Positions 2 to 42,849 of a stretch of DNA of 44,062 nt are shown piece after piece. Within the stretch, counting starts at the first letter, position 1, and each line of letters opens with the position of its first letter. The notes beneath the pieces are model-generated. The model did not search any database and had not been told where the DNA came from. It saw only the letters and a list, made by a program, of their open reading frames with translations. Position numbers and translations under genes: made by a program. The stretch is from Collodictyon triciliatum (lineage: Eukaryota): the NCBI GenBank assembly GCA_043381765.1, contig JBHJMP010000846.1, positions 1 through 44,062 of the forward strand, read 5' to 3'.

Positions 2-976
2 CCAACCACAGCCGTCCTGAACAACAAAGGAGAATGGCGCTCACGACGTCCCATCTCATACGGAGCACCGTCGCCATTTTTCTTTCGCCTGAAGAACCAA
101 AGGCGGTCCATTACACCTGACTCTCCACAATTCTCGATGGCCATGACATATTCCAAGCTATTTCGATATAAAATCATCAGTCCGAATCCTTACAGACCGG
201 AGAAAATGAGTCGTTGGGTCGAAACTATAGGCATTATAGACCCGCCGATAGTCAAAAGCTGGAAGCAAGCCCGTATACCTCAGCTACTCCCAAAACACCG
301 CGCCCTACTTCTCAATATCTCCAACAGAGAGCTGTGGATAGGTGCGCGCGTAGTCCATGCAGCAACGACCTCTCCAGAATGCACCACGTGCCATAGTGGA
401 GATGACTCTATCGAACACACATTTGTGAAGTGCTCTCTTGCTCGAAAAGTGACAGAATCTACCCACAAGATGCTCTCTGAGCTTGGTTATGCTCCCAACC
501 GTCTCAGCGCGTCTGACATCCTGTTTGGCGCACAATACCAAATGGCCCACGACTCCAGAATACTCTGGACAGTCACAAGGGGACATATGCTGTGGGCCTT
601 ATGGAGTGTGCGTGCATTCTCTCGCTCCGATGATTTACCCGAACGAGAAATCAATGTATACATGCTTGAGAGCCTCGTGCAATACAGCTTCCTGAACAGC
701 CTGCTGAAACACGCTCGCATTCTTCGCTACTCTGACCGCAAGCGAAGAGAGATATGGGAATGTGTCGTAAGATATCTCCCACAGCATACCCAACCACTGC
801 TACCTACACAGCCAATCAACCAGTTGGGTCGCCCACCCGACCAACTCGCTATCACAGACTTTTGTCCACTATTTTTTTTTTTTATTCTTCCTTTCAACTT
901 TTGTGCAGGACCGAGGGGGGATGTTGGCAGACTTTTTTCCACTATAGAAGGTCTGTGTATTGGAAATGTAACATGA
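2..976 (+). mobile_element. 3' end of non-LTR retrotransposon (L1/Tx1-like) ORF2, zf-RVT C-terminal region; 5'-partial
   Basis: Frame is open from base 2 through ORF 137..976. It carries a Cx2C...H-x4-C knuckle (ECTTCHSGDDSIEHTFVKCSLARKV) followed by ILFG...LWALWSVR, typical of L1/Tx1 ORF2 C-termini. The native stop appears displaced by the insertion at 873-927. Confidence 0.8.
855..945 (-). mobile_element. 55-bp 5'-truncated retroposon tail (873-927) with poly(A), flanked by an 18-bp TSD
   Basis: Direct repeats cagacttttgtccactat (855-872) and cagacttttttccactat (928-945), 1 mismatch. The insert on the minus strand reads ...tcctgcacaaaagttgaaaggaagaat(a)n and matches copies at ~17877 and ~31585. 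Confidence 0.75.
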
Positions 977-5660: not shown

Positions 5661-8600
5661 TTAACCTGCCAAAGTAGCTGGTTTTCGGATGCTGGAGCCA
5701 ACCTCTGGCCCACGCCCACTTTTGTTGGTCAAGTCGTGGGCCTTAATCAGGTCTCCATAAGAGTGCAGAGTCACTGCAGGGTATAGAGTCATCATATCCA
5801 ATCCCAGGATGGGTATCTGTTTTGTGAGAGATGGTTCATCATCAATCACAAACTCGACATATTTATGTAGGGGCTTAGCGATGCATTCAATGGTCCGGAA
5901 GTGGTGCTTCTTCAATTTCGGGATGCTCATGTCCATGTGGATTGTATTTCTAAATAACCCAAGCCAAATATTAGGCAAAATGGAAGAATAACAAAGGGCG
6001 ATATAAGGAGGCACAAGGAGGCTACTTTTTTGTTTTCCTTTCTTTCTAAGGAAAATGAGCCGGAATCGGACTTTTCATAGAATTATACCTTTCTTTTTTT
6101 TCTTTTTTACTTTTACTCTTGTATTTGCTTCTTTTTTTTAAATAAATAAATCAATTAAATTAAATCATATAATCGATACACTGTTAAAACATCACTTACA
6201 CATGAAAACCTCCTCGGAATGTTGCTGTGGACTCGAATTCTTTCAAGTCAACGCAGACCGAGTCCTTCTCCCCGAGGTTTTGGTTGGGGTCATACGAACC
6301 AAGACATAGTCCAACCGAAACCCTATGAAATTCTCCGTATGATATGACTACAATTTTGAATCGATGAATCCCGGATAGAGCTTTCATTTTAACCTGGCTG
6401 ATAACAGAGTAGGGTGCCACCTCCATTTGATTGTTGTACAGTATACTCATATCGCCACCAATAATAATTTCACGATTGACAGGATGGGGAAAAAAGTAAG
6501 GATTTTTGGAGTAATAGAATGACCTTCTGCTCAACGCCAGGTCGCTCGTTGAAAAGGGGTTGCTCCCTTGCTTGTAAATGGCACGCATACAACATCCTGC
6601 ATCAAGTAAAAAAATGGGACGGAACTCGTCGTCTCCGATATCCATGGTCTGGAGGTTTTGATCAGCAGCCATAAATTGTCTTTTGGTTACTTGGACTATC
6701 TGGTGACTCAAAGTCATTATGTACCTTACAACAGGAGGCGGAAGGTTGTGACTGACGAGTTGCTGCGGCTGTTCACTACTAATGTCTGTCTCCAAAACTA
6801 TGTTTGTCGGCATTATTGGTGAATTTTGGCTATTGTAGCCATATGATTTCCTTGACGGACTAACCTCGACTCTTCCAACCATTATTTCAATATCGAGATA
6901 TCCAGGTTCCAGCTTTTCGTTAATGAACCATGTTGAGACATATTGTAAAGGCTTGGAAAAAGGGTTGTACAACACTATCTCATTTTCGTAGACGAAGCAG
7001 ACCACTGATTCACTTTTTGCAGTGATATATCTTTTTTCAGCGGGGCGTTGTCTATATGATGGATACTGCCTCTGGGAGGCAGCAGCGAGAGGACCGTTTT
7101 GCTCTTGATTTGGTGGAAGAGGAGCGGTATTTATCAATTCTAGATGTTTATAGGGAATTCACAGTTATAATTGCGTTTTGTGGGTCACGGTAGATGGTTT
7201 CAAATCTTTATAAACGTGACTCAATTTTTGTCAGGACTCTCTTTTTTTAAAAAAAGAAAAAAACCTTTTGGATTGAAATTATCTTCCTTCGCTGCATGGA
7301 GGGACTAATTAACGTATTGAATAAGTAAATATTGTTGTATATATGTATATTATATATGAAAGTAAAATATTGGTCGATGTGTTTGCTTTCTTGTACAACT
7401 ATTCATTCTTTTCACACCCTCTGTCAAAAAAAGAAGGAGAGAAAGAGAAAAGAAAATAAAAGAAAAGAAAAGACAAGATAAAGAGGGTACTTAACGTGAA
7501 TAGAATACAAGATTAATAAGATGAGCCAATTTAACTATAATAAATTACCTCATTCTCACAAGAGATTTGACGGTACATAAAGACGACGAGGTGATACATG
7601 TTGAAAATAGTGAGAACCCACGGGAGTGTGATATACCAGGCTAGATTATAATATAAAACCCAATTTACTGTCAGTAGAGTCTTCAATTTTCGGTAGAAAG
7701 TGTGTCCGGCTTTTGGACTCATCAGTTTTAATACAACTGATCGTAAAGCTCTCGTAAAAACACGATTTATAACCCAAACTATTGCCGCAGCGGCAAACGT
7801 AGGTAGGTCAAGCAATATCATCAGAGCGATTTGCTTCTTTGAGGCTCCAATATTCTTGTTGAAGACGAAAATACTCTTTGAGAAACCTCTCCAGTCTCCA
7901 CTGGCCAGCGTCTTAATCGAACGGTTAAAACTGCGCTCGTCTATGGGAAGAAAGTAACCACCAGCTCGAATGTCATAAGTTTTAGCCGACCAATGGAAAA
8001 TCTTACGAAGAAGAGGTCGGAATGGCTCCAAAAGATTAAGTGGCGCTGGTGGCGGCGTATTATCTACAGAATAAATTGTGTATGCAAACAATTTATTGTA
8101 CTGGTTCTCTGAGTTTGAACGGATATCTTCGTATGTGGCGCTTAGAATTGCAATTAAGAAATTTAACATCATAATTCCACATAAAATCAGAAACGTAAAT
8201 AAAATCAGAGGAGCCATGATGGGATCCACAGCCTGTATTGTCTCGAAATCTATGTTTCCAAAAAGAACCAACCAAATGGTGTAGAAAATATAACCGACAG
8301 CAGAATAATCTTGGAGAGCTGCACCAAATACACAATAAAAAGCAGACGCATAAGCAGCAAGTACAATGAACAGAAGAAGTAAAAATTTGAGAAGGTTAGA
8401 AGACATCTTAATGGCGATTATTTGCATAGGGCCAATAAATTTGAGCATTCCTACGAAATAGAGAATTCTAATCCACGAAACAAAGGACAAAACGGCCATA
8501 AAGTCTCCTATGATATACGATAATGTAAAGTTCGAGACCATCACTGGCAAAGAACCAGACTTCCAGTCGATTGTTTCGGTCGGGTATGACAACGCCAAAG

Positions 8601-35695: not shown

Positions 35696-35697
<2 letters not shown>

Positions 35698-35776
<79 letters not shown>
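35698..35776. repeat. (TAA)n microsatellite at the host/viral-element junction
   Basis: About 26 units, directly visible. Confidence 0.95.
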
Positions 35777-35818
35777 TGATATTATATTTATCTATATAGT
35801 TAGATAAATATAATATCA
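35777..35818. repeat. Perfect 18-bp inverted repeat (hairpin) at putative left terminus
   Basis: TGATATTATATTTATCTA - tatagt - TAGATAAATATAATATCA. Confidence 0.9.
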
Positions 35819-35900
35819 CTTTATTCCGTCGTTTAATTTTTAGACGCTTATATACCCCACCCACCTTCCTTTTATGGATAAATTCCAGATTTGGCAACAT

Positions 35901-35960
35901 CTTTGCGGAATCTTCTGGAATCTTCTGGAGCCTTCTAGAATATTGCGGAATATTCCAGAT
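35901..35960 (+). promoter_or_regulatory. Heat-shock-element-like array (six 10-bp nnTTCnnGAA units) upstream of integrase
   Basis: ctTTGcgGAA tcTTCtgGAA tcTTCtgGAG ccTTCtaGAA taTTGcgGAA taTTCcaGAT, ending 20 nt before the ATG. Confidence 0.55.
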
Positions 35961-35980
35961 TATATTTTATCCGATATGGT

Positions 35981-37240
35981 ATGACCGATAAACAAACTCT
36001 CAAAAAATCCTTATGGGATGATATGCTCGATAAATTATTCAACAAGACACCCATCCATACCAATTCAGTCGAGGCCTTGTATGTTGCAGCCAAGCCATAT
36101 AGCATACCACACACCTATGTCAGAGACTGGCTAGCCAAGCAACCAGACTGGCAAGTAATGCACAAGAAGCAACCCAAGCGCAATACTCCCACTGTTGTAC
36201 GATATAAGCCTGGATACCTGCAGATGGACTTTGTTGATATCACTGACTTGAATTCATTTAAGCACACACACCTTCTCAATTTTGTAGACGTATACACCCG
36301 CCAAGCCTTTTCATTCCCTACTGTAGATAGATCTCAAAAGAGTGTCATCGATGCAATCAGAAAATTAATTGAGGTCTATCCCGTTGTGAATGTCCTTCAA
36401 AGTGACAATGCCCCTGAGTTCAACGACAAGGAAAATAAAAAGAAAGAAGGCAAACCCATCACCGAGTTTCTCAAAGCCAATAACATCAGACAAGTCTTTT
36501 CAACCATTGCCACGCCTACCGCCAATGCATACGTCGAACGATTCAATGGCACAATCAAACGTATACTCTATGGCTACAAATCTAAAACTGGCAAGGACCC
36601 TCTACCCGACATTGATTCATTCGTTGAACACTTTAATAAAACTAAAAACGCAGACACCAAAGTTGAACCTGCCCTTGCTATGCATCCTGACAAACAAGAA
36701 ACCCTCGAGGAAAATACAAAGATGTATCACGTCAAAAAAAATAAAGCGTCCCAAGCTGAACTCAGTGTTGGTGACAATGTCAGAGTCTCACTAGAAAAAT
36801 CTGTAATGAATGCAGAACTCAAAAACGAAATCAGAGACAAGTTCAAAGGTAATAAGCCCAAGTGGTCTTATGACCTTTACAAAGTTAAAAAAATATTCAA
36901 ACCCAAAGATGATTCATTCTCTACTACCTTCTATCAAGTAGACGGCGGCAAGGACTGGAAATGGCTTGACGGAAAAAAATTCCAACGACACGATTTATTA
37001 TTGGTCGACCAAGAAACTAAACCCGAAAGGTATGTACCTAAATACCAGCTCGTCAAGTTTACAGATTTATACAAAGAACCTGTCGGCGCTGGACGACCAG
37101 CCAAACAAAATGTCAAGCCAAAGAAAAACCCTGTTGGACGCCCACGCAAACCCGTCGACCCCAATGCACCTACCCCTGTTAAAAGACCTAGAGGCAGACC
37201 ACGCAAAGTTATTATTGAGGAGCCTGATGATGAGGACTAG
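35981..37240 (+). CDS. Retroviral-type (rve/DDE) integrase of Polinton/Maverick type with C-terminal AT-hooks
   Basis: LQMDFVD / LQSDNAPEF / NAYVERFNGTIKR supply the D,D,E triad. LSVGDNVRV...PKWSYDLYKV is the Polinton integrase C-terminal motif. GRPAK, GRPRKP and RPRGRPRK are AT-hook motifs. Confidence 0.93.
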   Translation: MTDKQTLKKSLWDDMLDKLFNKTPIHTNSVEALYVAAKPYSIPHTYVRDWLAKQPDWQVMHKKQPKRNTPTVVRYKPGYLQMDFVDITDLNSFKHTHLLNFVDVYTRQAFSFPTVDRSQKSVIDAIRKLIEVYPVVNVLQSDNAPEFNDKENKKKEGKPITEFLKANNIRQVFSTIATPTANAYVERFNGTIKRILYGYKSKTGKDPLPDIDSFVEHFNKTKNADTKVEPALAMHPDKQETLEENTKMYHVKKNKASQAELSVGDNVRVSLEKSVMNAELKNEIRDKFKGNKPKWSYDLYKVKKIFKPKDDSFSTTFYQVDGGKDWKWLDGKKFQRHDLLLVDQETKPERYVPKYQLVKFTDLYKEPVGAGRPAKQNVKPKKNPVGRPRKPVDPNAPTPVKRPRGRPRKVIIEEPDDED

Positions 37241-37800
37241 TCTTTATTCTTTTTTGGTCGACCACGCGGCCGCTTCGGCGCAGACTCCTTCGGCTCAGGC
37301 TCGACCACCTTGCGCTTCTTAGCAGCAATCATCTCCTCAATATCAGCCAGCTGCTTGTCCATCTCCTCGACCTCCACCTCAGTCTTGACCTTCTGTTTTT
37401 CAGCTCGACCCTCCACTGCCTTCTTAATTCCCTTCTTCATCACATCCTTGTATTCCTTCTTTGACTTGAAAAACATATGCACGTCATTCACATCCACACT
37501 CCAAGCTCTGCCTCGATTCACTGAATCCAAATTGCCGTATCGAAAGCCAATGATATTTTTGCCCTCTGCACCTGCAATCTTAGCCTTGCCCTCATCTGGG
37601 ATAAAGCTAACGTAACCACCTTTCACGTATCGGTCTTGAACCTCCTTGCCTGCATATTGCCCGTGCACATATTTGCGAGCTTTGGCAAAATATGAAATGT
37701 AGTCCATCACCTTGATATCCTTCCATTCAATTGGGTCCCAGTTATCATCAAAGTCTTCAGGCAACTTCTCACGAATATTCTGCGGTATCTTCATATCCAT
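37237..37800 (-). CDS. Hypothetical viral protein with coiled coil and C-terminal AT-hook
   Basis: Clean 187-aa ORF ending KRPRGRPKK; its stop overlaps the integrase stop in a CTAG. The core (YISYF...KGGYV...AWSVD...FFK) recalls small unannotated large-DNA-virus proteins (from memory, unverified). Confidence 0.8.
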   Translation of the reverse strand: MDMKIPQNIREKLPEDFDDNWDPIEWKDIKVMDYISYFAKARKYVHGQYAGKEVQDRYVKGGYVSFIPDEGKAKIAGAEGKNIIGFRYGNLDSVNRGRAWSVDVNDVHMFFKSKKEYKDVMKKGIKKAVEGRAEKQKVKTEVEVEEMDKQLADIEEMIAAKKRKVVEPEPKESAPKRPRGRPKKNKD

Positions 37801-37873
37801 TCCTACAATATATTTTTTTCAAATAAACGCAATTTAAAAACAACTTGACATAATAACTTAATTACAATCTAAA

Positions 37874-38167
37874 ATGAATAATCAATTTACACGTGAAGAA
37901 TATCAACAATTCAATATATTCTGTGTCCGCCTATTTCAGATGGATCTTGAAACCATCAAGTTATTAGTAGCTTCTGGTCACAAATTAAAAGCTCGCAACT
38001 CCGCCTATTACAAAAAAAGATTAATAAAAAAAAAGGCCACCCCTATGTTTATATTACCAGACGCGCAGCCCCCTCAGATTGACTACACAGAATTTGAACA
38101 TCGATTCCCCAAAGTTTACTCAACCGGAATGTCCTCTAGCGAATCTCTCTCCGACAAATCAAAATAA
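37874..38167 (+). CDS. Small basic hypothetical protein (97 aa)
   Basis: Fills the space between neighbours; A-rich start context (aaaATG); shares an upstream TTAAAAACA motif with the replicase gene. Confidence 0.6.
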   Translation: MNNQFTREEYQQFNIFCVRLFQMDLETIKLLVASGHKLKARNSAYYKKRLIKKKATPMFILPDAQPPQIDYTEFEHRFPKVYSTGMSSSESLSDKSK

Positions 38168-38192
38168 ATTGTGGCAATCACCACCATTCATT

Positions 38193-40475
38193 TTATTCTT
38201 TTGTGCGTGCTCTCTTGGCGCTGCTCACAATCTCATCAGTCAGAAAGTAACACTTCATATTGCTGTTATCCATCATCATCTTGCGAACCTCTTTATAGTC
38301 GCATTCATACTTACCACGCTTAACAGTAAATGGGTAGGTAGATTTGAAATTAGTCCAAATTGGATTATGAACAAATGACTTGAATTCTAACACTTTGTGA
38401 TTCGGTAATCTCTTTGCGCTAAACGTTTTGTAAATGTCATATATCTCATCAATGTGATGGCTAAAAGGAGTTGCGTCCTTTTCTTTATGCCATAGGTATT
38501 TACTTTTAAACACCAGCTCATAAGTGTCCCAGATGTAATCATTCCATTCAACAAACAAAAACTTTATAAATTGTTCAATGGGATGCATACTAGTTTCTGC
38601 CAACACTTCACAAGTCTCACTTTTGGGAAAGTCATTAAAGTTAAAATTGGCATCATATTCATTCATCAACACTTTTGTAAATATCTTGACAAACTCTTCA
38701 TTGTTTGTTTCCTTTGTTAACTGTGATATCTCTTGTGGAGTCAGTCTATACTCTTTCACATCAAATATAGGAAAGCGTCTCATATTGTCCCTTTCAAACA
38801 CAATACCGATTTCTTTGTTGGTGTTCAGAATATAATTAACTGTGTTTCGTACAGGATACGGATTGTGGTACAACATACGCACGTGATTCTCGTCACGGTC
38901 CACAGCTTCCTTAATGTCTCCTTGTAAACTCTTTGTTTTTGAGGTATCACTTTCTTCCAATATACACAACAGCTTATTAGCAATGTTCATATTCTTTTCT
39001 CCAAACACCTCAGACAAACCGGAATGTGTGCTGCCGTATTGCTTGCCTAGAACTTGTTGCACAAACATCCTATGAAAGAAAGCAGTCTTACCTGTCCCTC
39101 CTTTGTTGTTGCGGAATATCATCATCTTGCCAATTCGATAATTGGGTTGATACAGAATTCTCGCTAAGTATTGAATTACATATTTCTCAGATACAGGATT
39201 ACCCGCACATAGATACTGAGACAATTGCTTATAGGTCATACTACTCTTCCAAATAGTATAATCGGCTTCGCTCACAGTTTTAGCAATGTTAGTACAATAG
39301 CCTAGCCAGTCTTCCCATTGTTGTCCGTCAAATTCTGGAAAATACTTTTCAAATGCAAAGCCCTTGAAATAGTTGTAGGCCTTGGGGTTGCGTTCGTTTG
39401 TAAATCCGTCATAAGGTGAAAAGTCAAAGTACATAAAGCGTCGTTCTTTTGGTAAGAATAACTGCACAGTATCCCAAAATTTATCTCCAAATTGTTGACA
39501 ATAGGATGCGGCAGACTTTATATGTTCGGGCTTACGAGTAGGTTCATCTGGGTACTCGACAAACAAATTGCCAAGTAACATAAAATGAGTCTTTGCAAAT
39601 TCTTCTAATGGTGTGTCCGCTTTGATAGTAATTTCATTAGGCTCAAGTGTTGATTCAATAGGTTTAAAGCTAAATTCTACTTTGTACCCTGTCTGCTCTT
39701 CAATGTATCTTGTCAATTCGATATTCTTTTCATCTGGGTGACAATACTGTTCCTTGTTAACAAACAGCCCATCAAAATTGTACATCCCAATATCAACATT
39801 AGCTTCTTGTAATACACTAATCACTTTCTGCATTATTTTTGTTTCTTCAGTTTGCAACAAATATGCCAGACAGCTATATATGCGATTGTCGTGCTCAGAC
39901 AAACATTCGTCTGACTCTCGGAATTTCAACTTGTGCCATTCAGGATATTTTGAATATGCCATAGCAGCCAACATTTGCATTTCACTTTGCAGTTTCATAC
40001 TAAACTTGTCATTACTAACAAGTGCTTGTGTTTTGCCACTAAACGCTAACATCAAATATCTTTTCTTGACTTCCTTGCGAGTCTTATGTGTTAACTCCAT
40101 TGCCCTTTCAATTATACTATCACGGTTCTTTACATATTCCTCGATAGCTTCGTGATCTATATCCCATTTTTTTGCCAAACCCAAAGACAGAGCATAATGG
40201 CAGTTGACAATATCAAGGCTAGCATATTTATCCTTCAATAGATAATTACGAATGGGTTTATCAAGCATTCCCACTGAAATGCCACAAGGGTAGAATCTGC
40301 CAACTTTGAATTTTCTTAATTGCTTAGCATAGTCGTATTTAACTTTTAAGCCGTCCTTATCCATTTGCTTTTTGATAACACTTAGCTTCCCTTTTTCCTT
40401 TTTGCTGATTATTTCTTCTGGCTGCTTCAGCAGCTTTTTAATTGTAATGGGGTCGATTGATTCAACTAGTTCCAT
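38193..40475 (-). CDS. PolA-like (TV-Pol) primase-polymerase fused to SF3/D5-like helicase
   Basis: N-terminal half: GRFY..., motif A SLDIVNCH, motif B RKEVKKRYLMLAFSG, LQTEE, motif C NFDGLFV. C-terminal half: YLARILYQP, Walker A GGTGKT, Walker B LCILEE, motif C NYILNTN, then MRRF. Confidence 0.85.
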   Translation of the reverse strand: MELVESIDPITIKKLLKQPEEIISKKEKGKLSVIKKQMDKDGLKVKYDYAKQLRKFKVGRFYPCGISVGMLDKPIRNYLLKDKYASLDIVNCHYALSLGLAKKWDIDHEAIEEYVKNRDSIIERAMELTHKTRKEVKKRYLMLAFSGKTQALVSNDKFSMKLQSEMQMLAAMAYSKYPEWHKLKFRESDECLSEHDNRIYSCLAYLLQTEETKIMQKVISVLQEANVDIGMYNFDGLFVNKEQYCHPDEKNIELTRYIEEQTGYKVEFSFKPIESTLEPNEITIKADTPLEEFAKTHFMLLGNLFVEYPDEPTRKPEHIKSAASYCQQFGDKFWDTVQLFLPKERRFMYFDFSPYDGFTNERNPKAYNYFKGFAFEKYFPEFDGQQWEDWLGYCTNIAKTVSEADYTIWKSSMTYKQLSQYLCAGNPVSEKYVIQYLARILYQPNYRIGKMMIFRNNKGGTGKTAFFHRMFVQQVLGKQYGSTHSGLSEVFGEKNMNIANKLLCILEESDTSKTKSLQGDIKEAVDRDENHVRMLYHNPYPVRNTVNYILNTNKEIGIVFERDNMRRFPIFDVKEYRLTPQEISQLTKETNNEEFVKIFTKVLMNEYDANFNFNDFPKSETCEVLAETSMHPIEQFIKFLFVEWNDYIWDTYELVFKSKYLWHKEKDATPFSHHIDEIYDIYKTFSAKRLPNHKVLEFKSFVHNPIWTNFKSTYPFTVKRGKYECDYKEVRKMMMDNSNMKCYFLTDEIVSSAKRARTKE

Positions 40476-40559
40476 TTTCTTTGTTCTTACTATCCTATAG
40501 ACAAATGTTTTTAAGCCAGTAATTACAAAATAACAGGGGTTGTGTGTTCAAGTCCTCTT

Positions 40560-40820
40560 ATAATGGGGAGGGTTGAGTATTGGTTTAATTACTCCTTACT
40601 CTTTTATATGCCATTTTACTATGCACAAGTATATACACATCCTTACATACACAAGTCTATAATTATAAAGTTCATAGGATACCCTACCCCATTTTAAGGG
40701 GGAAAAAGTGGTAGGGTATCCTATAAAAAGTTTTCAAGGGGGATGTGACTTGGGGTTATGCAACCCTCCCCATTATTCAAAAATAACTGTAACAGGGCCA
40801 CGAAGAATAGAGTAAGGAGT
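40560..40820. other. Structured intergenic element: four inverted-repeat pairs, one crossing (candidate replication origin or ncRNA)
   Basis: A 40560-75/A' 40761-76 (16 bp); B 40591-602/B' 40809-20 (12 bp); C 40674-88/C' 40710-24 (15 bp); D 40626-30+40636-42/D' 40741-52. Confidence 0.7.
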
Positions 40821-40959
40821 TTTCTTTTTCCTGGCTCCGCTCACCCTTTTCTTTTTTGTAAAGAGCAAGTCAAGAAACATCTGGGCCTCCTCAAAAGTCA
40901 AAAATACGTGTTGTTCAGAATTAGGAGTATATAGTCGTAACATATATTAAGACTAGATA

Positions 40960-41682
40960 TTAATAAAGGATTTCTTCCGTAAAGTTTTTGTAGGCCTTGA
41001 TTTTACGAGGCGTCAAGAGATTTATGTAAAGAAAGCAATACGGATCAGCTGTCGCAAAGTCAAACAACTCGTCAAATACTTTCTGATCGAGATTTGTAAT
41101 TTCGTTTAGAGATTCCCGTTCGTGTTTGTTGTCTGTATAAAACGCAACCAGGTGACTTGCATTTTGCCGGATTTTCGGATTAAACAAACGAATCGCGTGC
41201 CCGACAATAATCATAGAAAGCCTGTAGTGTCGATGCTGGAGCATTTTCTTTAGTAGCACTTTACTAGGACGCTCAAATGAAGTCCCCAGATCGTCAACCA
41301 CCAATAAATAAGCATTGTCTTTAAAATCCGGGTCCTGAGTTATATCGGCTGTTATTGCTTCAAATATCTGTTCGTTAAAGTCGTCGTACATTCGACTCTT
41401 GTGAAACCTTACACCGTCATAGGAAGAGTCGTGTATTTCCCCACCTGAAATATTAGAAGAGCAAAAATATACTTTGTCGAATATCTTGTGATACATTTCC
41501 TTCTTTCCTAGCAAATTACTAATCAAGGTTGTTTTACCTGAAGCAACTTTTGCGCTTATCAACATCCAAAAAGGTCTATCTGATTTTGCATCCGGGAGTA
41601 TTTCTAAAACTACTTCACGCTTGTTTTTCTTTACAGTCTTCAACGGGGCAACATTAACGTCACTTACTTTTTTACTTTCCAT
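40960..41682 (-). CDS. A32/FtsK-HerA family genome-packaging ATPase
   Basis: Walker A variant ISAKVASGKTT, KVYFCS, Walker B YLLVVDDL, RHYRLSMIIVGH, and PKIRQNASH (arginine-finger region). Confidence 0.92.
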   Translation of the reverse strand: MESKKVSDVNVAPLKTVKKNKREVVLEILPDAKSDRPFWMLISAKVASGKTTLISNLLGKKEMYHKIFDKVYFCSSNISGGEIHDSSYDGVRFHKSRMYDDFNEQIFEAITADITQDPDFKDNAYLLVVDDLGTSFERPSKVLLKKMLQHRHYRLSMIIVGHAIRLFNPKIRQNASHLVAFYTDNKHERESLNEITNLDQKVFDELFDFATADPYCFLYINLLTPRKIKAYKNFTEEILY

Positions 41683-42812: not shown

Positions 42813-42849
42813 GCGGATTATTCCAGACATTTAATTTCTTGCCTAGAAT

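Follow-up and report, generated by a model that had tools for sequence, protein, structure and literature searches.

A 10-bp repeat array with heat-shock-element grammar at the apparent left end of a probable integrated polinton-like virus

The window, by which is meant the whole stretch of 44,062 nt that was analysed, contains a run of six 10-bp units of the type GAAnnTTCnn which is real and non-random in its phase. Comparison with environmental relatives indicates that this array is conserved, that it apparently acts in cis as part of the left end of what is probably an integrated polinton-like virus (PLV), and that it belongs to this end and would not simply be the promoter of the integrase gene. 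As to what the array does, we tentatively favour, at somewhat below an even chance, a binding array specified by the virus which would combine a function at the genome end with the control of genes.

Sequence of the array and content of the element

The DNA of the window is eukaryotic, carrying genes for LRR, WD40 and polycystin proteins as well as many microsatellites, and an intron-free block inside the integrated element runs from ∼35.8 kb to the window end (44062). The visible block contains an integrase, a replication gene and a packaging ATPase, Table 1, the capsid genes being outside the visible part, and by this content it appears to be the non-capsid half of a PLV. A gap of 949 N follows the packaging ATPase and is itself followed by a fibre-like gene (from 42850). 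No chaperone gene was found in the 44,062-nt window. Three AT-hook-like GRP motifs are present in the tail of the integrase (37100-37237), where the Pfam AT_hook match has an E-value of 0.0099, just below the cut-off, and two unrelated long proteins (P0011 and P0012) match the integrase only via this AT-hook-like tail. Long nested inverted repeats were seen in the spacer between helicase and ATPase (40500-40800) and in the divergent spacer of the related contig L061 (5880-6100). Such repeats might act as origins that form hairpins, or might be small inserted elements.

Table 1. Features of the left end and of the visible part of the element, in window coordinates
Feature	Position	Strand	Remarks
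(AAT)27 microsatellite	35696-35776		precedes the terminal palindrome
Terminal palindrome	35774..35821	.	48 nt; 21-nt arms, 95% complementary; 6-nt loop
Left genome end CTTTATTC	35819..35826	+	start of environmental/free copies
TATA-like conserved box TATATACCCC	35849..35858	.	31-40 nt from the end
25-nt conserved subterminal box	35874..35898	+	contains an isolated in-phase TTCCAGA
Six-unit 10-bp array	35903..35959	.	85-141 nt from the left end
Two-unit promoter-proximal module GCGGAATATTCCAGA	35945..35959	+	21 nt before the integrase ATG
AT-rich spacer	35960..35980	+	between array and integrase start; array ends 21 nt before the ATG
rve-type integrase, 419 aa	35981..37240	+	Pfam rve, E 1.4e-11
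Rest of the visible element, 187-aa ORF to packaging ATPase	37237..41682	-	listed as minus, except the 97-aa ORF (+)
187-aa ORF	37237-37800	-	tail to tail with the integrase
97-aa ORF	37874-38167	+	
Primase-helicase	38193-40475		DUF5906 helicase, E 4.3e-12
A32-type packaging ATPase	40960-41682		Pox_A32, E 5.3e-7
Second two-unit module GCGGATTATTCCAGA	42813..42827	+	directly after the N gap, 22 nt before the fibre ATG (42850)

The initial annotation had described six in-phase 10-bp units of alternating TTC and GAA triplets together with a further in-phase unit at 35881-35890, and this description is borne out by the sequence and by the shuffles. Read directly, the array has the 7-base cores TTGCGGA at 35903, TTCTGGA at 35913 and again at 35923, TTCTAGA at 35933, TTGCGGA at 35943 and TTCCAGA at 35953. 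An extra TTCCAGA in phase with these is found at 35883 (35883-35889), with no unit at 35893. The spacer between TTC and GAA is always a pyrimidine followed by a purine, and GGAATATTCC, the unit that is kept best, forms a perfect palindrome of 10 bp whose half-sites are GGAA. Tandem Repeats Finder reported 35907-35941 with a period of 10, 3.5 copies, 80% matches and a score of 49.

Perfect GAA/TTC triplets were counted at 5-nt steps and the count was compared with that in 200 dinucleotide-preserving shuffles of the whole window. The best stretch of ten pentamers starts at 35908 and has 8/10 perfect triplets, with 4 contiguous perfect alternating units from the same position where a heat-shock element takes at least 3. 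The maxima in the 200 shuffles were 3 (45 shuffles), 4 (143) and 5 (12), with none above 5. Positions with at least 4/6 triplets number eight in the window and all lie between 35898 and 35933. The minimal three-unit pattern TTCNNGAANNTTC gave 2 matches in the window, both within the array, against 0.93 expected; this pattern is not rare, at least 2 matches being obtained in 21 of 100 shuffles, and it is thus by its length and phase that the array exceeds chance. As a single strand the array folds better than shuffled sequence (-10.3 kcal/mol, 2 of 200 shuffles as good) because its units are palindromic. A 36-codon frame running over the array (35874-35984) was rejected as coding since a stop occurs inside the frame in contig L062, thus the array is not coding. 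A 2-codon mini-frame, ATGGTATGA (35976-35984), overlaps the integrase ATG and is kept in L061 and L062.

Conservation of the array at the left end

The left end is placed by four independent environmental contigs, each of which starts no more than 3 nt from position 35819. Two of them, L062 and L064, both begin with CTTTATTC, a third, L067, begins ∼3 nt or less from the same site and in the fourth, a Logan contig from run X1, the 29 letters before 35848 are a loose end that opens with the letters of CTTTATTC. In the window the terminal palindrome touches the virus end or shares its first letters, and it may be the reason why assemblers stop there. Run X20 (presumed RNA) matches only 31 nt of the stretch, all of them in this palindrome (35785-35815), and both flanks in its Logan contig differ from those in the window. 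This makes the palindrome a dispersed sequence, which may also form the end of other related elements. Further in, the TATA-like box is present in the window, L062 and L067 and in a variant form in L064, and the 25-nt subterminal box is identical in L062 with 18/20 letters kept in L067. No inverted copy of 35819-35980 was found by BLAST in the window, which ends inside the element, or in L061-L073.

The relatives examined were 10 integrase relatives from the protein collection (40-97% identity) and 13 metagenome loci (L061-L073). The initial annotation had made its case depend on the GAA/TTC phase being kept in sister copies and had asked whether the array recurs in related elements. Recurrence was confirmed, the array or a minimal block of it being present in L062, L061, L064 and L067, and the grammar itself was kept in three of these and partly lost in the fourth. 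L062 (integrase 89% identical) has four 10-bp units reading TTG GAA TTC GAA TTG GAA TTC GAA with 6/8 triplets perfect. L061 (90%), a contig which starts inside the array, reads TTC GAA TTG GAA TTC GAA with 5/6 perfect, and L067 (41%) has GAA TTC GAA TTC at 107-126 with 4/4 perfect. L064 (64%) reads TTC GAT TTC GAT GTC GAA with 3/6 perfect; here the 10-nt period is kept 78-110 nt from the end and the units have drifted to GAT/GTC. The longest perfect contiguous runs are 4 in the window and in L067, 3 in L061, two runs of 3 in L062 and none in L064. Of the TTGCGGA variant there are two copies each in the window and L062 and one in L061.

The array had also been placed directly before the integrase gene, and this is correct for the window and its closest copies only. 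In L064 the array and the integrase are ∼480 nt apart, with other repeats between them, though a spacer resembling that at 35960..35980 immediately precedes the integrase there. In L067 the integrase is 1 kb further on, and two ORFs, one HNH-like (129-503, minus strand) and one of 138 aa, come between it and the block; the block ends 2 nt before the stop of the converging HNH-like ORF, which is no position for a promoter. Measured from the end, the array starts at 85 nt in both the window and L062, at ∼78 nt in L064 and at 107 nt in L067. Given that L064 and L067 separate the array from the integrase and keep its short distance of 78-107 nt from the end, the array, or a minimal block of it, is tied to the genome end and not to the integrase. 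The fallback reading of the initial annotation, a subterminal array for a protein of the element, gains direct support from the constancy of this distance in the four copies.

The DNA interposed in these two contigs has features of its own. In L064, positions 111-570 comprise ∼230 nt of ∼33-nt repeats with telomere-like TTAGGG runs, followed by a MITE-like insertion bounded by a ∼22-nt inverted repeat. Positions 129-943 of L067 resemble a homing-endonuclease insertion in the virus end.

No array was found within 400 nt upstream of the integrase in L066 and L070. A common AT-rich stretch of ∼40 nt, different from the upstream signal of the window, stands directly before the integrase ATG in L066 (300-335), L067 (958-1000) and L070 (515-560). 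L065 and L072 likewise lack an array and show a single similar 14-mer only, and none was found in the up to ∼125 nt of upstream DNA visible in L068 and L069. The first 60 nt of L068 look like sequencing adapter and are thus not biological. L063, L071 and L073 start inside the integrase gene and give no upstream sequence.

The end region is under purifying selection. In a comparison of the window with L062, identity is 88.3% over the integrase DNA and 80% at third codon positions, and the non-coding stretches beside the array are identical at 66/69 and 36/38 letters. L067 keeps three subterminal blocks though its integrase DNA barely aligns with that of the window. Flanks more conserved than third codon positions, together with the blocks kept in L067, argue for constraint on this region; the comparison as a whole covers only four or five lineages. 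This bears on the possibility that replication slippage on a short palindromic repeat produced the array neutrally, without any sequence-specific function. Unit number does differ among near-identical copies, being 6 in the window and 4 in L062, and a contig from run X2 aligned to 35863-36152 with 10 gap letters, suggesting one unit fewer than in the window. The host region is rich in microsatellites and the folding of the array strand (z -3.0) could promote slippage. Slippage does not explain why the same grammar occupies the same place in a copy with 41% integrase identity, at which distance no likeness would be left in neutral DNA, nor the conservation of the flanks, nor the two-unit copy before a second gene described below. 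We therefore regard a neutral origin as improbable.

The second copy was found by searching with GGAATATTCCAGA at up to 3 mismatches. This gave 27 matches in 44 kb, of which only those at 35947 and 42815 had at most 1 mismatch, and these two lie 21 nt and 22 nt, respectively, before an ATG. The near-copy CTGCGGA precedes the fibre gene in both the window and L061. In L061 the identical 15 letters are found 21 nt before the fibre ATG (6871-6885) and the 21-22 nt which follow differ at several places. Since the L061 copy sits in the last codons of the preceding ORF, its conservation may partly be that of coding sequence. This preceding ORF, of 254 aa, has no Pfam match. Only 1/4 triplets in the fibre-side copy are perfect. 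The motif is upstream of 2/6 visible starts in the window, 2/7 in L061 and 1/5 in L062; in the window it is absent upstream of the 187-aa ORF, the 97-aa ORF, the primase-helicase and the packaging ATPase.

Candidate binding proteins and known systems

That a protein binds the array, which protein this would be and what its binding would do are all matters that we infer. In a heat-shock element, contiguous nGAAn units follow one another in alternating orientation with 2 nt between them. Heat-shock factor (HSF) depends most on the G of GAA, which pairs with the C of TTC, and it prefers a pyrimidine and then a purine between TTC and GAA. The array could thus be a true heat-shock element bound by host HSF as one to three trimers, so that proteotoxic stress such as heat or giant-virus infection would switch on the integrase and perhaps replication linked to the end. 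The units are contiguous and inverted with the required spacing, 8/10 are perfect with 4 contiguous from 35908, at least 3 contiguous perfect units stand at the subterminal site in every lineage but L064 and the pyrimidine-purine spacer is found throughout. The array is directly before the leftmost gene in the closest copies, and mobile elements with such sites in their terminal repeats, ONSEN and DIRS-1, are a precedent as far as the accessible parts of their descriptions go.

Against HSF stands the conserved TTGCGGA, which alters the C of TTC and with it the base pair most needed by HSF. L064 has lost half of its perfect triplets and kept the period and the place. The fibre-side copy, with 1/4 perfect, is implausible as a heat-shock element, and still the window and L061 agree in all of its 15 letters. 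The blocks in L067 and L064 do not adjoin a gene start, and the 21 nt from array to ATG leave little room for a downstream polymerase II core promoter. The resemblance to a heat-shock element also weighs less because the site was picked for having it. Binding by HSF is accordingly a possibility to which we give less credence than to a protein of the virus. That a multi-trimer heat-shock element is wired into the PLV end as a stress-sensing switch, reactivating both the integrase and end-linked replication, appears rather doubtful; were it so, reactivation would proceed without any match to helper-virus promoters.

A host transcription factor other than HSF might instead read GGAA/TTCC half-sites, as several transcription factor families do, and the palindrome GGAATATTCC with its GGAA half-sites would suit such a factor. 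Strict 5-nt alternation over 50 nt is atypical of the GGAA/TTCC families, and this explanation is very improbable.

Several observations favour a binding array specified by the virus: the array keeps to the end and not to a gene, the region is under selection, unit number varies between near-identical copies, a two-unit copy recurs, and the letters of TTGCGGA and CTGCGGA are conserved though HSF has no need of them or should be hindered by them. The arrays before Rep genes described below also show that this type occurs beside replication-initiator genes. The drift of the units in L064, with period and place kept, is what would be expected of sites co-evolving with a virus protein. The layout of the end is a terminal palindrome, the 8-letter end, the TATA-like box, the 25-nt box and then 2 to 6 palindromic 10-bp units. 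These units, spaced one helical turn apart, would each offer a docking place to a DNA-binding protein, dimeric or oligomeric, that the virus or a helper virus specifies. Once bound, this protein would mark the end of the genome for a step confined to it, whether the start of replication, integration or packaging, and would also control the integrase and fibre genes. Control of both genes is suggested because the last two units stand ∼21 nt before the integrase and the two-unit copy 22 nt before the fibre gene. Within this scheme, slightly more than half of the weight goes to an end function with autoregulation of the integrase, and the rest to a promoter motif that the transcription machinery of the virus or helper would read.

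Some observations count against specification by the virus. A motif found before so few starts (2/6, 2/7 and 1/5) is thin for a general promoter code. The GAA/TTC grammar is mainly constant across the lineages and it is the 'n' positions which vary, as binding by HSF predicts. Pfam offered no candidate binding protein: no sequence-specific DNA-binding domain was detected in the 97-aa ORF, the 187-aa ORF or the integrase N-terminus.

Systems already described resemble the array in part. The inverted terminal repeats of Dictyostelium DIRS-1 are reportedly a precedent for heat-shock sites, credited to Zuker et al. 1984. For ONSEN, the available portion of the source gives five clustered heat-shock units in 49 bp of the LTRs (PMC13602373). 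Like these elements, so far as their accessible descriptions extend, the array has clustered inverted nGAAn units in the terminal region of a mobile element and next to its first gene, and with 8/10 perfect it fits the textbook definition of a heat-shock element better than ONSEN with its five units in 49 bp. On the same partial descriptions, ONSEN and DIRS-1 are retrotransposons in which the repeat is the promoter and heat induction is proven, whereas the present element is a DNA virus whose array is a putative target of binding and induction. Unlike theirs, its array in two lineages keeps to the end and not to a gene start, and it includes a conserved non-consensus unit.

Promoters matched to a helper virus are a second comparison. 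The parts of the sources available state that mavirus/EMALE carry the late motif of CroV and that PgVV-14T carries the mimivirus early motif AAAATTGA (10.1101/2022.07.28.501842; 10.1101/2025.10.09.676808; 10.64898/2026.07.28.741278). As in these virophage and PLV promoters, in so far as the excerpts describe them, a short motif is here found at a fixed distance before an ATG (21-22 nt, two genes). Unlike the motifs given in the excerpts, the array does not match AAAATTGA, nor as a rule an AT-flanked TCTA (one unit has TCTA), and it stands before only 2/6 visible genes and is expanded to a tandem array at the genome end. According to a figure legend in the PgVV preprint, the palindrome TCCGGA occurs at high frequency upstream of the genes of Tetraselmis virus 1, and this resembles, by appearance, the TCYRGA core of the array.

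The third comparison is with the endogenous virophages and PLVs of Halocafeteria, for which the accessible text describes terminal palindromes together with a replication gene other than pPolB and an RVE integrase, and for which end-primed (hairpin-primed) replication is proposed (10.64898/2026.07.28.741278). The present element likewise has a palindrome at its extremity (48 nt), a primase-helicase and an rve integrase. The combination of palindrome, non-pPolB gene and RVE integrase thus matches that of elements for which end-primed replication is proposed in the text available, and this supports a function at the end. The same text describes no subterminal 10-bp array in the Halocafeteria elements, and here only one end is visible.

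Other small DNA viruses offer functional parallels. In parvovirus, initiator-binding repeats lie beside the terminal hairpin and a further copy is present in a promoter. Adenovirus has sites for host factors in its inverted terminal repeat, and its packaging repeats at the left end overlap the enhancer of the first gene; PLVs and adenoviruses have a common capsid and packaging ancestry. The likeness to the array is in short repeated sites within ∼100-400 nt of the end which overlap the control region of the nearest gene, and function in the parvovirus and adenovirus repeats depends on position. The sequences and proteins of these viruses are unrelated to the array, whose role in replication or packaging would be a prediction.

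Similar arrays elsewhere and significance

Heat-shock-like 10-bp arrays were also seen in IMG/VR on two small unrelated viral contigs, L120 (1484-1511) and L130 (998-1025), ∼100-130 nt before the starts of CRESS-type Rep genes (Gemini_AL1, and Viral_Rep plus helicase). These may possibly be Rep iterons. Arrays of 10-bp TTCYRGA type, perfect and of TTCTAGA kind, are present in six contigs labelled as giant-virus bins (L074, L080, L089, L093, L114 and L126). In L080, L089, L093 (∼2501-2527) and L126 (∼759-785) they are intergenic, 14-120 nt before gene starts. No chaperone was found among the scanned neighbours of the giant-virus-bin arrays or among the ORFs of L074 and L114. Since they stand beside Rep genes and in spacers of giant-virus bins, arrays of this 10-bp type are not peculiar to heat-shock promoters.

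Searches of IMG/VR and of a genome contig collection gave no further copies of the element. In IMG/VR, pattern matches to the integrase yielded 0 confirmed of 17 (single protein) and 0 of 106 (alignment), the helicase 0 confirmed of 3, and the 25-nt terminal box had 0 matches; a degenerate 20-nt box had 2 matches, neither with a protein of the element. The fibre N-terminus had 296 relatives, of which 80 were kept, and was set aside as these were phage-type fibre matches with no element protein or terminal region. In the genome contig collection the integrase alignment gave 0 confirmed of 87, and the 61 matches to the terminal box look like chance, none extending beyond 29 nt or lying with an element protein. 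The exact 15-mer had 60 matches in IMG/VR, about chance level by a rough estimate, and was likewise discarded. Parts of the stretch were found in runs of 10 studies, and the three runs examined cover 29-30 of 30 bins. Freshwater metagenomes commonly contain the lineage of the element.

Subterminal repeats, and heat-shock elements in the ends of mobile elements, are known kinds of feature. A conserved array with heat-shock grammar at the end of a PLV was not found in the literature searched, where the term heat shock element was not linked to virophage and, with polinton, led only to an unrelated review of plant transposons.

What wakes integrated PLVs, and how most of them replicate, is largely unknown in the field. 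The only PLV switch worked out in the available portions of the sources is the matching of promoters to those of a helper giant virus (10.1101/2022.07.28.501842; 10.1101/2025.10.09.676808; 10.64898/2026.07.28.741278). A short, conserved and easily mutated array at a defined genome end would provide a concrete handle on reactivation and replication. If HSF binds the array, then reactivation of the PLV would be tied to the stress of its host. If a protein of the virus binds it, then the array would mark the site of origin, integration or packaging in a common freshwater lineage.
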